Positions 57,001 through 63,000 of a stretch of DNA of 64,000 nt are shown here, piece by piece. Each line of letters opens with the position of its first letter. The stretch's first letter is position 1. Location: the NCBI RefSeq assembly GCF_013315695.1, contig NZ_CP054353.1; one strand, 5' to 3'. Made by a program: the position numbers. The stretch comes from Escherichia coli. GTDB taxonomy: Bacteria; Pseudomonadota; Gammaproteobacteria; Enterobacterales; Enterobacteriaceae.

Positions 57001-60000
57001 AATGGCACCATCAGCCTGCGTGTACGCCCGGATATGGCGCAGAACAATGCTGACAGACTGGTCATTGACGGTGGCAGGGCAACCGGAAAAACCATCCTGA
57101 ATCTGGTGAACGCCGGCAACAGTGGTACGGGGCTGGCGACCACCGGTAAGGGTATTCAGGTGGTTGAGGCCATTAACGGTGCCACCACGGAGGAAGGGGC
57201 TTTTGTCCAGGGGAATATGCTGCAGGCCGGGGCCTTTAACTACACCCTCAACCGGGACAGTGATGAGAGCTGGTATCTGCGCAGTGAAGAACGTTATCGT
57301 GCTGAAGTCCCCCTGTACGCCTCCATGCTGACACAGGCAATGGACTATGACCGGATTCTGGCAGGCTCACGCAGCCATCAGACCGGTGTAAACGGTGAAA
57401 ATAACAGCGTCCGTCTCAGCATTCAGGGCGGCCATCTCGGTCACGATAACAACGGCGGTATTGCCCGTGGGACCACGCCGGAAAGCAGCGGCAGCTATGG
57501 CTTCGTCCGCCTGGAGGGTGACCTGCTGAGAACAGAGGTTGCCGGTATGTCTGTGACCGCAGGGATATATGGTGCTGCAGGCCATTCTTCCGTTGATGTT
57601 AAGGATGATGACGGCTCCCGTGCCGGCACGGTCCGGGATGATGCCGGCAGCCTGGGCGGATATATGAACCTGACACACACCTCCTCCGGCCTGTGGGCTG
57701 ACATAGTGGCACAGGGAACCCGCCACAGTATGAAAGCGTCATCGGGCAATAACGACTTCCGCGCACGGGGCCGGGGCTGGCTGGGCTCACTGGAAACCGG
57801 TCTGCCCTTCAGTATCACTGACAACCTGATGCTGGAGCCACGGCTGCAGTACACCTGGCAGGGGCTTTCGCTGGATGACGGTAAGGACAACGCCGGTTAT
57901 GTGAAGTTCGGGCATGGCAGTGCACAACATGTGCGTGCCGGTTTCCGTCTGGGCAGCCACAACGATATGACCTTTGGTGAAGGCACCTCATCCCGTGCCC
58001 CCCTGCGTGACAGTGCAAAACACAGTGTGCGTGAACTGCCGGTGAACTGGTGGGTACAGCCTTCCGTTATCCGCACCTTCAGCTCCCGGGGTGATATGCG
58101 TGTGGGGACCTCCACCGCAGGCAGCGGGATGACGTTCTCACCCTCACAGAATGGCACTTCACTGGATCTGCAGGCAGGACTGGAAGCCCGTGTCCGGGAA
58201 AATATCACCCTGGGCGTTCAGGCCGGTTATGCCCACAGCATCAACGGCAGCAGCGCTGAAAGTTATAACAGTCAGGCCACGCTGAATGTGACCTTCTGAT
58301 AATTCTGCATTGCCTCTCTGTGGTCCCGGTCATCATGACCGGGATCCGGACGGGGGAAAACGTTTCAGTGCCACATTCACTGGCATTCACAATAACATGA
58401 TATTCATCACGGAGTGACTATGTTACAGATAGTCGGCGCGCTGATTCTGCTGATCGCAGGATTTGCCATTCTTCGCCTTTTGTTCAGAGCATTAACCAGC
58501 ACAGCGTCTGCGCTGGCAGGGTTCATATTGCTGTGTCTGTTCGGTCCGGCTTTACTGGCTGGCTATATCACTGAACGCATAACCCGGTTATCCCATAGTC
58601 GCTGGCTGGCAGGCGTATTTCTGACGATTGCCGGAATGATCATCAGCTTCATGTGGGGACTTGATGGTAAACATATCGCACTGGAGGCTCATACTTTTGA
58701 CTCTGTAAAATTTATTCTGACCACCGCTCTCGCCGCTGGTCTGCTGGCTCTTCCCGTGCAGATAAGAACCATTCAGCAGAACGGGCTCACACCTGAAGAT
58801 ATCAGCAAGGAAATTAACGGGTATTACTGCTGTTTTTATACTGCTTTTTTCCTTATGGCGTGTTCTGCATACGCACCATTGATCGCATTGCAGTTCGATA
58901 TTTCACCCTCACTGATGTGGTGGGGCGGGTTGTTGTACTGGCTGGCTGCATTAGTGACGCTGCTATGGGCGGCCAGCCAGATCCAGGCGCTGAAAAGACT
59001 GACCAGTGCCATCAGCCAGACACTGGAAGAACAACCGGTGCTCAACAGTAAATCGTGGCTGAGCAGTTTGCAAAACGATTACAGCCTTCCTGAAACGCTG
59101 ACGGAGCGCATCTGGCTGACACTCATTTCACAACGGATTTCCCGGGGAGAACTGAGGGAATTTGAACTGGCAGACGGAAACTGGCTACTGGACAATGCCT
59201 GGTATGAAAGAAACATGGCGGGTTTCAACGAAAAGCTGAGAGAGAGCCTGTCATTTACCCCTGATGAACTGAAAACCCTCTTCCGGAACCGCCTGAATTT
59301 ATCACCGGAAGCGAATGACGATTTTCTCGATCGTTGCCTGGACGGCGGTGACTGGTACCCCTTTTCAGAAGGTCGCCGTTTTGTATCATTCCATCACGTG
59401 GATGAGCTTCGTATCTGTGCCTCCTGCGGGCTGACAGAAGTACATCATGCCCCGGAAAATCATAAGCCGGATCCGGAATGGTACTGCTCCTCTCTTTGTC
59501 GCGAAACAGAAACACTGTGTCAGGAAATTTATGAACGCCCTTACAACAGCTTTATTTCCGATGCAACGGCGAATGGTCTGATTCTCATGAAACTGCCGGA
59601 AACCTGGAGTACAAATGAGAAAATGTTTGCTTCCGGAGGGCAGGGACATGGGTTTGCCGCTGAACGGGGAAACCATATTGTCGACAGAGTCCGTCTGAAA
59701 AACGCACGGATCCTCGGTGATAATAATGCCAGAAATGGAGCAGACAGACTGGTCAGCGGAACAGAAATCCAGACGAAATATTGTTCAACTGCAGCCCGTA
59801 GCGTCGGTGCGGCATTCGACGGACAAAACGGACAGTATCGTTACATGGGAAATAATGGCCCCATGCAACTGGAAGTCCCCCGTGATCAGTATGCCGGCGC
59901 TGTTGAAACCATGAGGAATAAGATCCGCGAAGGTAAAGTACCCGGTGTAACCGATCCCGCAGAAGCGTCCAGGCTGATTCGTCGGGGACATCTGACTTAT

Positions 60001-63000
60001 ACCCAGGCCCGTAATATCACCCGGTTCGGGACCATCGAATCGGTCACTTATGATATTGCCGAGGGTTCGGTTGTCAGTCTGGCGGCCGGAGGGATCAGTT
60101 TTGCCCTGACGGCATCGGTCTTCTGGCTCAGCACTGGCGATCGCGATGCTGCCCTGCAGACAGCTGCTGTCCAGGCAGGAAAAACCTTCACCCGCACACT
60201 GGCTGTCTACGTCACAACCCAGCAACTTCACCGGCTCAGTGTTGTTCAGGGTATGCTGAAGCACATTGATTTTTCGACTGCCAGCCCGACTGTCCGACTG
60301 GCTCTTCAGAAGGGGACTGGTGCAGGAAATATCAGTGCCCTGAACAAAGTAATGAAGGGTACGCTGGTGACATCTCTGGCACTGGTAGCTGTCACAACCG
60401 GCCCTGACATGATCAAAATGTTGCGGGGACGGATCTCCGGTACGCAGTTCATCAGGAATCTTGCCGTGGCATCTTCCGGTGTGGCAGGTGGTGCTGTCGG
60501 GTCAGTGGCGGGCGGAATACTGTTCAGTCCACTGGGACCATTTGGTGCACTGACAGGGCGTGTGGTTGGCGGTGTTCTGGGGGGAATGATTGCCTCCGCT
60601 GTATCAGGAAAAATTGCCGGAGCGCTGGTTGAAGAAGATCGCGTCAAAATTCTGGCAATGATTCAGGAGCAGGTGACATGGCTTGCCGGCAGTTTCCTGC
60701 TGACCGGACATGAGATTGAAAATCTGAACGCGAATCTGGCCCGTGTTATCGATCAGAATGCTCTGGAGATCATTTTCGCCGCCGGTATACAACAACGGGC
60801 CGCGACCAATATGTTAATCAAACCACTGGTGGTCAGTATCATCAGGCAACGCCCCGTCATGGAATATGATGCATCCCATCTCGGCAATATGGTTAACCGA
60901 CTGGAAGAAGCATTACCCCCGGAGTTACCGGCATAACGGCTATTCTGCGCCTTTTACGCTTTATCACCTGATTTGTCAGTGTCATCGTCATGACTCAGAG
61001 AGGTAAATACCATGATTCACCTGTTCAAAACCTGCATGATTACCGCCTTCATTCTGGGGTTAACGTGGTCTGCCCCACTCCGGGCACAGGATCAACGTTA
61101 CATCAGTATACGCAATACAGATACGATATGGCTCCCGGGAAATATTTGTGCTTACCAGTTCCGGCTGGATAATGGCGGAAACGATGAAGGATTTGGCCCC
61201 CTCACCATCACTCTGCAACTCAAAGACAAATATGGTCAGACGCTGGTGACCAGAAAAATGGAAACGGAAGCCTTTGGTGACAGTAATGCCACGCGAACCA
61301 CAGACGCATTTCTGGAAACGGAGTGCGTGGAAAATGTCGCCACAACCGAAATCATTAAAGCAACTGAAGAAAGTAACGGCCATCGTGTCAGTCTGCCGTT
61401 ATCGGTTTTCGATCCCCAGGACTACCATCCACTGCTGATTACCGTTTCCGGAAAAAATGTTAACTGATCCCTGAAGTCAGTTTCATGCTTCAGCCTCTGC
61501 CACAACGTATGGCAGAGGCTATTTATCAGGAGAAACCAGATATGCCGGGTTACACACAGAGTATGTCCTGGCTGAAGGATCTTTCTCATACGGTCAGGCG
61601 GTTGCTGTCATAACCGCTTACCGCAATGTGTTTATCCAGGATGACCCGGGTACGCATTTTCGTCTGGTGATCCGCAACGCGGAAGGTCAGCGACGCTGAC
61701 GCAGCCGGAACTCTGAAGCTGATGCCGGAAAACAGCTTAATGCGTGGCTCGCCAGTGGAGGGCTTCTCAGACAATAAACCTCATTGATTTCATCCATCAG
61801 GCCGCGTCTTCTCCGGGAGACGCGGCTTTTTTCATTTATTACACCAGTAAATCTTAACCACCGATAAGGAGCAAATTATGCGACTAGCCAGTCGTTTTGG
61901 TTATGCTGCAAACCAGATACGTCGTGACCGTCCACTGACACATGAAGAGCTGATGCACCATGTGCCGGGGATTTTCGGGGAAGATAAACACACGTCCCGA
62001 AGCCAGAACTATACGTACATCCCCACCATCACCGTACTGGAAAGCCTGCAGCGGGAAGGCTTTCAGCCATTCTTCGCCTGCCAGACCCGCGTACGTGACC
62101 CGGACCGCCGGGAATACACCAAACACATGCTGCGTCTGCGGCGGGCCGGAGAGATAACCGGACAACATGTCCCTGAAATCATTCTGCTCAACTCCCATGA
62201 CGGTACCTCCAGCTACCAGATGCTGCCGGGTTACTTCAGGTTCGTCTGCCAGAACGGATGCGTCTGTGGTCAGTCTCTGGGGGAAGTGCGTGTTCCGCAC
62301 CGGGGAAATGTGGTGGACAGAGTCATTGAAGGGGCTTACGAGGTGGTGGGCGTGTTTGACCGGATTGAGGAAAAGCGTGATGCCATGCAGTCGCTGATTC
62401 TGCCGCCACCGGCACGCCAGGCGCTGGCACAGGCGGCACTGACTTACCGTTATGGTGACGAACATCAGCCCGTCACCACCGCCGACATTCTGACGCCACG
62501 ACGCCGGGAGGATTACGGTAAGGACCTGTGGAGTACTTATCAGACCATCCAGGAGAATATGCTGAAAGGCGGGATTTCCGGTCGCAGTGCAAAAGGAAAA
62601 CGTATCCACACCCGTGCCATTCACAACATCGACACCGATATTAAGCTCAACCGCGCATTGTGGGTAATGGCAGAAACGCTGCTGGAGAGCCTGCGCTGAT
62701 GCAGCATGTCCCTGAAAGCGTGATTCAGGCACCAGAATCACCCGACGCCCCGGAGGCGCTGCCGGGGTGTCGTTCCATTTCTGATGATGACCTGTGCGCC
62801 TGGTGTACCCGTCTGCTTTACCGTCCCGGAGAAATCAGTCTGTGCAGACTGAGTATACAGGCAATGGCATCTGGCCATCCGTCTGTGACCGGAACGGTTA
62901 CGCGTACGGCTGTCCGGAATTTCAGCCGAATATCATTCATCCCTGATATTACCGGGTCATCACGGTCAGTGATGAACGTGATGTTGCCAGCTCCCGACCT

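Follow-up and report, generated by a model that had tools for sequence, protein, structure and literature searches.

The window analysed here is a stretch of 64,000 nucleotides of Escherichia coli DNA (contig NZ_CP054353.1 of assembly GCF_013315695.1), in which the gene yeeR lies directly downstream of agn43, the gene of the Ag43 autotransporter, and encodes a protein of 838 residues. In strain K-12, YeeR (b2001, located in CP4-44) is annotated with 510 residues. This locus raises the question of why the two proteins differ in length, and what the full-length protein may do. An original prediction, made from the sequence alone, put the K-12 protein at about 510 residues, in agreement with the annotation, and proposed that the window protein is a longer or fused variant. 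The window protein is indeed 328 residues longer than K-12 YeeR, but the direction of the change was inverted, as the K-12 protein is the product of a deletion.

The full-length yeeR gene and its remnant in K-12

Comparison of the K-12 CP4-44 locus (L001) with the window by blastn yielded two colinear blocks, the first covering window positions 54292-59940 and the second resuming at 63554. The segment missing from K-12 CP4-44 (59941..63553 on the plus strand, 3613 bases) contains the 3' 40% of yeeR, irmA, a DUF905 open reading frame (ORF), a DUF932 gene, and an antirestriction gene. The K-12 yeeR is colinear with the window gene over 1521 nt, and residues 1-507 of its product are colinear with the window protein (486/507 identical); after codon 507, K-12 YeeR continues with the junction-derived 'EER*', the stop of which overlaps the yeeS/radC start. 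The 510-residue length is therefore explained by a 3.6-kb deletion that fuses codon 507 with the start region of radC/yeeS, which is the outcome of the alignment with K-12 YeeR that had been suggested as a check. In K-12, the protein still has its transmembrane (TM) anchor, both winged-helix-like units, the zinc ribbon, and the larger part of the alpha/beta core described below, but without aa 508-838 it has lost the last stretch of that core as well as the helical hairpin, glycine zipper, and C-terminal domain.

The yeeR gene of the window occupies 58420..60936 on the plus strand (838 codons plus stop), according to the ORF list and annotated homologous DNA. Its reading frame is unbroken from either a GTG at 58414 or an ATG at 58420 to the stop ending at 60936, with the in-frame GTG adding two codons, and a Shine-Dalgarno-like cggag (58410..58414, plus strand) was read 5 nt upstream of the latter. 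This ATG was taken as the start because three observations agree: the 838-residue translation (N-terminus MLQIVGAL...), the homologues from other genera, which begin alike (MLQI...), and the 2517-nt coding sequence (CDS) annotated from the same start by the Prokaryotic Genome Annotation Pipeline in genomes 99.5-100% identical. The 99.5% identical DNA carries the annotation 'YeeR family protein' (2517 nt). The ORF had been predicted at 58421-60936 with 838 residues, of which the length and the stop were right, while the start was off by one base.

The window protein shares 97% identity with the cluster representative P0001 across 100% of the length, and P0001 carries the Pfam family PF27347 (YeeR_C), which was present as a precomputed assignment on all of the approximately 115 homologues listed as well. 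A profile of aa 372-625 recovered PF27347-bearing YeeR proteins with E-values of 1e-100 to 1e-127. Full-length yeeR genes (97-100% identical DNA, 838 aa) are found at the same agn43/irmA position in uropathogenic E. coli (UPEC) EC958 and CFT073 and in enteroaggregative E. coli (EAEC) 042, and the nearest copy found belongs to strain HM670, with 14 nt differences and the same island adjoining the kps capsule locus. The stretch 58420-60936 is almost certainly an intact yeeR, second of three genes in an operon already published (agn43-yeeR-irmA, controlled by OxyR/Dam); K-12 holds a truncated copy of yeeR. It is an ordinary gene for an island of the extraintestinal pathogenic E. coli type, and its product is a member of a known, named, and uncharacterised family.

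The difference in length from K-12 could also suggest that a YeeR normally about 510 aa long was elongated or fused in one lineage, with extra domains gained at its C-terminus. However, 3.6 kb of the window are absent from K-12, where the last three codons of yeeR come from the junction. The same layout is seen in homologues of 805-856 aa from Gamma- and Betaproteobacteria, such as those of Serratia, Pseudomonas, Shewanella, Methylomonas, Herbaspirillum, Cupriavidus, Dyella, Deefgea, Stenotrophomonas, and other genera, and the 90%-identity cluster of the 838-aa YeeR comprises 15,556 member sequences. Moreover, the seemingly 'extra' part, missing from K-12, shows the best conservation and evolves under strong purifying selection, and the K-12 truncation had been published. 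With the K-12 deletion mapped to the base and same-length homologues widespread, the idea of an elongated or fused variant is refuted and has next to no probability left. It was checked whether natural alleles of E. coli are mostly about 510 aa long, or whether K-12 has sequence missing from the long form, and neither is the case. The 838-residue protein is the normal, ancestral, common, and conserved form, and the 510-residue K-12 YeeR is the remnant of a 3.6-kb deletion, of which we are nearly certain. The original prediction had named common, functionally annotated homologues of the same length as what would make the protein unremarkable; such homologues are common, and no defined function is annotated on them, in line with its statement that the function is unknown.

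Judged from the sequences by the usual evolutionary criteria, the intact yeeR is functional and not decaying, because both substitution rates and residue conservation point that way. In the comparison of the window allele with the full-length, 97%-identical allele of E. coli strain EcPF14 (Nei-Gojobori method), the ratio of nonsynonymous to synonymous substitution rates was 0.136 over the whole gene, 0.067 within the conserved core, and 0.084 for the C-terminal third that is lost in K-12. Approximately 55 alignment columns are invariant across YeeR homologues of 30-67% identity.

The agn43-yeeR-irmA operon was defined by Moriel et al. in 2016 (PMC4807369), the truncation of K-12 yeeR is already in the literature, including work by Bernabeu et al. 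(PMC4807369, PMC6480617), and a K-12 transcriptome paper labels yeeR as a pseudogene (PMC8614746). Both the truncation and the operon are thus known, having been published in 2016 and 2019. The length discrepancy arises from the use of K-12 as the reference and matters little as posed. It calls for caution with the K-12 'YeeR' entry (510 aa, 'inner membrane protein'), which describes a remnant without the best-conserved 40% of the protein.

Sequence of yeeR was detected in 2582 of the 5426 complete E. coli genomes, and at least 80% of the 2517 nt was found in one piece in 1800 of the 5426. Many damaged alleles are present in E. coli, including the K-12 truncation, in-frame internal deletions, and insertion sequence (IS) insertions, and IS insertions between agn43 and yeeR have been reported in CFT073 and other strains (PMC4807369, PMC9431211). 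The in-frame internal-deletion alleles encode proteins of 746 aa (P0003), 691 aa (P0004), and 558 aa (P0021), in which approximately aa 393-483, 319-457, and 242-523 are deleted, respectively, and one allele was found on 38 contigs. The E. coli matches covering 45% of yeeR were considered as forms with an alternative N-terminus, which was rejected, as they are in-frame internal deletions instead. That the zinc ribbon and core have been lost repeatedly could reflect relaxed selection or counter-selection in some lineages.

Predicted domain organization of the 838-residue protein

An AlphaFold2 model of YeeR was built on a 44-sequence alignment (44 homologues, 30-67% identity) and reached a mean predicted local distance difference test (pLDDT) score of 76.6, and a separate model of aa 372-625 reached a pLDDT of 87.3 and a predicted template modelling score of 0.81. 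The predicted layout, modelled with mostly good confidence, consists of a six-helix inner-membrane anchor, a cytoplasmic winged-helix-like pair, a Cys4 zinc ribbon, and the YeeR_C module, all of which are encoded on the plus strand. Topology and structure prediction had been proposed as a check, and the N-terminal TM helices, central Cys-cluster, and Gly-zipper-like C-terminal segment that had been read from the sequence were all recovered.

The N-terminal membrane anchor (aa 1-190; 58420..58989) was recognised in a Kyte-Doolittle hydropathy scan and modelled by AlphaFold2 as helices with pLDDT of approximately 73-93. The six predicted TM helices lie at about aa 3-23, 31-51, 62-82, 96-114, 137-158, and 166-188, and the anchor is the least conserved stretch of the YeeR alignment. 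The Arg-rich loop at aa 52-61, together with the even number of helices, suggests an N-in/C-in topology, in which both ends of the anchor would be cytoplasmic.

Behind the anchor, AlphaFold2 and Foldseek point to two winged-helix-like units in tandem (aa 205-258 and aa 259-323; 59032..59388). In the predicted secondary structure, helices followed by a beta-hairpin are repeated twice. The units were labelled winged-helix-like because the only non-helical Foldseek matches in the PDB are winged-helix proteins, although these are weak (ESCRT-II 3cuq_B, probability 0.87; PyrSV gp04, 0.77; SelB, 0.69; E > 0.3). Then comes a Cys4 zinc-ribbon-like element (aa 330-367; 59407..59520), with the pattern C333-x2-C336...C356-x3-C360 plus C367, whose cysteines are invariant in the 44 homologues and in which short strands are predicted at aa 330-341. 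A connecting helix was modelled at aa 375-403.

The remaining part (about 440 aa), including the core, the hairpin, further helices with the zipper, and the helical tail, corresponds to PF27347 (YeeR_C). The alpha/beta core of this module (aa 405-535; 59632..60024) was delimited by alignments, the domain model, and the profile search. Residues H410, E415, N418, D422, D442, R443, Q451, K453, Y454, E485, D489, and Q490 of the core are invariant in YeeR homologues; in the YeeR alignment and 60 diverse superfamily members alike, E415, D422, D442, R443, Q451, K453, and E485 were invariant, and H410, N418, and D489 were nearly so. A long helical hairpin (aa 539-604; 60034..60231) has a hydrophobic first helix at aa 549-570 and ends in an invariant QQLHR. 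The glycine-zipper segment (aa 681-736; 60460..60627), with invariant G694, G698, G713, G717, and G721, was modelled with low confidence. The Pfam family C19orf12 (PF20721) matched aa 688-783 below its threshold (E 0.007; 16.6 bits versus the 30-bit cut-off). The C-terminal helical domain (aa 738-831; 60631..60912), recognised in the alignment and the AlphaFold2 model, carries a conserved KPxVV...KQRP motif.

YeeR resembles the glycine-zipper proteins (C19orf12-like proteins and YcfJ/'Gly-zipper' lipoproteins) in having GxxxG repeats in two adjacent hydrophobic helices. Some YeeR relatives are labelled 'YcfJ', and a Lactococcus homologue is annotated as 'glycine zipper family protein'. It differs from them in scoring below the Pfam threshold and in being a multidomain protein of 838 aa, in which the zipper takes up little of the length. 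At the extreme C-terminus, most YeeR homologues end in Ala-Ala after a variable linker, which resembles C-terminal degradation tags, and the E. coli protein ends in -LPA.

The YeeR_C superfamily and the possible function of YeeR

The profile of aa 372-625 was searched against 1.84 billion representative proteins, in which the YeeR_C core was found in 1075 clusters (50% identity) at E <= 1e-3 and in 626 clusters at E <= 1e-30. The core is located at the N-terminus of proteins of 450-700 aa that have no TM, winged-helix, or zinc-ribbon part and keep the hydrophobic and glycine-zipper tail, and it also occurs in proteins of 700-1200 aa fused to Sel1 or TPR repeats. Neither a solved structure nor a curated family accounts for this superfamily, and the PF27347 entry is brand-new.

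Eleven YeeR_C loci were looked over by eye. Superfamily members are usually stand-alone island genes, located beside toxin-antitoxin (TA), WYL, or Sel1-repeat genes. The Methylomonas gene has HicAB on one side and genes of GYF, DUF6399, and CAP12-PCTIR TIR proteins on the other, and the Pseudomonas gene is accompanied by a RES-Xre pair. The Herbaspirillum gene lies within an integrase-bounded element beside a DUF6361/PLD-like cluster, that of Deefgea has HepT/MNT pairs on both sides, with an integrase remnant and IS21 nearby, and in Dyella the gene is inserted alone, flanked by a GGDEF gene and a gene for a TonB receptor. On metagenomic Firmicute-like contigs and a conjugative Lactococcus plasmid, a WYL regulator is located directly upstream (two loci) and Sel1 repeats are adjoining or fused. 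An Oscillospirales phage has a prophage-type copy between an endolysin gene and a DNA invertase gene, and P4-type integrases and IS elements are also among the neighbours of distant loci. Neither a conserved neighbour nor agn43 or another autotransporter gene was found near YeeR_C genes in eight distant loci, and an all-against-all BLASTP of flanking small genes from eight loci revealed no shared partner except recurrent Sel1-repeat proteins. The Firmicute-type genes are located at L013 5273-9088, L019 4940-7893, L011 7001-11097, and L015 27-5676, and the Sel1 partners of two of these loci are weakly similar to each other.

The AlphaFold2 secondary structure of the core is alpha-beta-beta-beta-alpha-beta-alpha (helix 410-424, strands 429-431, 443-445, and 448-452, helix 458-463, strand 483-486, and helix 488-503). 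As an order of elements, this would fit the alpha-beta-beta-beta-alpha-beta core of the PD-(D/E)xK nucleases. In the model, E415 is located on helix 1, D442 just before strand 2, and Q451-x-K453 on strand 3 of a tight hairpin. Nucleases of the PD-(D/E)xK type have an E...(P)D...(D/E/Q)xK layout on helix 1, strand 2, and strand 3, and the D...QxK variant of this site occurs in Mrr and TnsA. The catalytic signature is matched in YeeR at the motif level only: E415, D442, Q451, and K453 are invariant in both the 44 homologues and the 60 superfamily members, at the secondary-structure positions expected. On the other hand, YeeR differs from the PD-(D/E)xK nucleases (Mrr, TnsA, and CdiA-CT of B. pseudomallei 1026b) in lacking significant sequence, profile, or Foldseek similarity to them, and its additional invariant residues H410, N418, D422, R443, E485, and D489 have no counterpart in the canonical motif. 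Foldseek matches to VRR-NUC proteins in BFVD were not significant, and a specific kinship to Mrr-type D...QxK nucleases was rejected after profile comparison. A restriction-endonuclease-fold core is thus offered as a tentative lead from the model, and not as a classification.

Taken as a whole, YeeR may be a self-contained, membrane-tethered conflict effector, of the phage or mobile-DNA defence or abortive-infection type. Its variable N-terminal part would position or trigger the effector; in YeeR this part comprises the TM anchor, winged-helix units, and zinc ribbon, of which the latter two may bind nucleic acid, and in relatives Sel1 or TPR repeats would take this place. The YeeR_C module would then execute, with the core cutting nucleic acid, possibly as a PD-(D/E)xK-like (D...QxK) nuclease, or, alternatively or in addition, with inserted glycine-zipper helices perforating the membrane. 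Since yeeR shares the OxyR/Dam-controlled transcript, production of YeeR in E. coli would be confined to cells in the Ag43 phase-ON state.

This reading was proposed because several properties of YeeR fit the usual profile of bacterial conflict effectors. The distribution is stand-alone, patchy, and island-borne; a constant C-terminal module is combined with a variable N-terminal module (TM/winged-helix/zinc ribbon, Sel1/TPR, or none); TA pairs, WYL regulators, TIR proteins, and integrases abound in the neighbourhoods; the gene is frequently inactivated in E. coli; and the core, with glycine-zipper helices behind it, has invariant residues in an enzyme-like arrangement. In addition, YeeR and several YeeR_C relatives weakly but repeatedly match gene B of the PADLOC candidate system PDC-M09 in the core and C-terminal helices (E 1e-5 to 1e-8). 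The match of YeeR itself to PDC-M09B (E 7e-6) covers partial stretches only and is marginal for a 480-position profile. PDC-M09 is itself a candidate system, and no PDC-M09A stands beside yeeR, as no match to this partner was found among the neighbouring GTPase, IrmA, and DUF932 proteins. A membrane-tethered sensor-effector acting in conflict or defence is accordingly the function we put forward tentatively, as one that may well prove wrong.

Several results weigh against it. The PDC-M09B matches are far below the level of membership, and the defence context, of the defence-island type, comes from a handful of loci. No nuclease relationship emerged from the searches: the local Pfam-A and NCBIfam search of whole YeeR gave nothing beyond the sub-threshold C19orf12 match; Pfam and PHROGs scans of 29 core sequences (E <= 10) returned scattered noise and no nuclease family; the PDB sequence search with whole YeeR and the aa 372-625 profile had no match; Foldseek of the full model against the PDB had none at E <= 0.001 (best E 0.22); and hhalign against an alignment of the Mrr catalytic domain gave a probability below 1%, with both profiles low in diversity. 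The proposed membrane insertion of the zipper concerns a region with pLDDT below 50. The YeeR family is also rare on phages (1/50,697 records) and true plasmids. Finally, no experiment that ties YeeR to a phenotype was found, nor a functional study in the literature on YeeR with defence or phage, or on PDC-M09, YeeR was called uncharacterised by Moriel et al. (PMC4807369), and yeeR is absent from the main text of a tosufloxacin-persistence paper.

Other functions have to be considered beside conflict or defence. The TM helices and the zipper might form a regulated physiological pore, so that YeeR would be a channel, transporter, or envelope-stress protein with no nuclease or conflict role. Generic helical similarity alone speaks for such a protein, which we regard as rather unlikely. 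YeeR might instead take part in the island's own DNA transactions (establishment, entry exclusion, or membrane DNA uptake or processing) alongside DUF932, antirestriction, and RadC proteins. Both in E. coli and in Serratia, yeeR is found within a block typical of the leading regions of transferred DNA (DUF932, antirestriction, RadC/JAB), and the winged-helix-like and zinc-ribbon elements beside the membrane would suit such a role. However, distant homologues are unlinked to DUF932, antirestriction, and RadC genes, the Serratia yeeR is on the opposite strand and outside that block, and K-12 and many other islands persist without a full yeeR, which leaves this role quite improbable.

The position of yeeR between agn43 and irmA could also point to an inner-membrane helper for the export, assembly, or regulation of Ag43 and/or IrmA, as the three genes are co-transcribed in UPEC (PMC4807369), the agn43-yeeR junction is kept in 2145 of the 2582 yeeR-bearing genomes, and irmA and yeeR are adjacent in Serratia too. 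Nevertheless, IrmA is released without YeeR and Ag43 (PMC4807369), K-12 still shows flu-dependent autoaggregation with its truncated yeeR (PMC8614746), and irmA has its own promoter in EAEC 042 (PMC9431211). Many agn43/cah copies have no downstream yeeR (4116 versus 2582 genomes), and no autotransporter is located near any of the distant homologues examined. A dedicated helper is therefore very improbable.

As for the conflict effector, its most specific version appears unlikely as a whole: a superfamily of more than 1000 clusters of single-gene conflict effectors, joining a divergent restriction-endonuclease-fold core (E...D...QxK) to membrane-inserting zipper helices, would have YeeR as its founding member in E. 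coli, and YeeR would be TM-anchored, DNA-recognising, and phase-variable with agn43. If this is true, defence would be coupled to the aggregative ON state through co-transcription with agn43, and K-12 would be a natural null, which may explain the absence of YeeR from defence screens in the K-12 background. If a defence or effector role of YeeR were confirmed, a phase-variable immunity gene carried on an island would become known from pathogenic E. coli. Apart from this, intact YeeR has some interest of its own: one in three complete E. coli genomes encodes it, purifying selection acts on it, it is expressed together with a phase-variable adhesin and an immune-mimic protein, and its superfamily is very large.

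The agn43-yeeR-irmA region of the island

Upstream of yeeR, agn43 (55171..58299, plus strand; Pfam ESPR, AIDA, AC_1, and Autotransporter) is separated from it by a 120-nt spacer. Downstream, irmA (61012..61467, plus strand), encoding interleukin receptor mimic protein A (Pfam PF18673, E 1e-37; PMC4807369, PMC9431211), follows after a 75-nt spacer, within which a promoter has been shown in EAEC 042 (PMC9431211). No terminator-like site was found before yeeR in the 120-nt spacer or before irmA, and the first strong intrinsic-terminator-like hairpin (61799..61828, plus strand; 13-bp stem and T-run) is located after the small DUF905 ORF. The co-occurrence with agn43 across genomes, another check that had been suggested, was also run. 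The agn43-yeeR junction is intact in 2145 of the 5426 genomes, which are most of the 2582 genomes with yeeR, while the agn43 3' end is present in 4116, so that many agn43/cah copies occur without yeeR. The link of yeeR with agn43 is real but specific to Enterobacteriaceae.

In Serratia sp. UGAL515B_01 (L010 7163-10520), irmA is located immediately upstream of yeeR, whereas E. coli has them the other way round. Both genes lie in a CP4-like element with GTPase, DUF932, antirestriction, RadC, and CbtA genes and no agn43, and the pairing of yeeR with irmA is therefore independent of agn43.

The gene order of the island (CP4-44 or pathogenicity-island type) is GTPase, agn43, yeeR, irmA, DUF905, DUF932, antirestriction, and radC, in which the DUF932 gene (61878-62699) and the antirestriction gene (ending at 63514) were identified by Pfam. 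The YeeP/YfjP-type GTPase (290 aa, 53972-54844; Pfam) upstream of agn43 is intact in the window and a fragment in K-12, and it has weak matches to dynamin-N and to PADLOC LeoBC/LeoA. A functional link between YeeR and this GTPase was considered and rejected: the GTPase adjoins YeeR in no distant locus and is on the other strand in Serratia.

Between the GTPase gene and agn43, a GATC-rich palindrome, AAACGATCGATAAAATAGATATCGATCGTTT, was observed at 54946-54976, which we take to look like the Dam/OxyR phase-switch region, and the leader contains a 12-bp hairpin with a T-run (55112-55139), roughly 30 nt upstream of the agn43 start codon. The agn43-yeeR spacer holds a near-perfect palindrome, GGTCCCGGTCAT C ATGACCGGGATCC (58322-58346), which has no T-run and was not called a terminator; perhaps it is a hairpin that acts in mRNA processing or stability. 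A YfjI-family (DUF3987) gene on the minus strand (51150-52658) is split into two ORFs, 51150-52028 and 52083-52658, which cover profile positions 176-363 and 1-151, respectively. It is probably a pseudogene in the window, because the gene is intact (1491 nt) in HM670.

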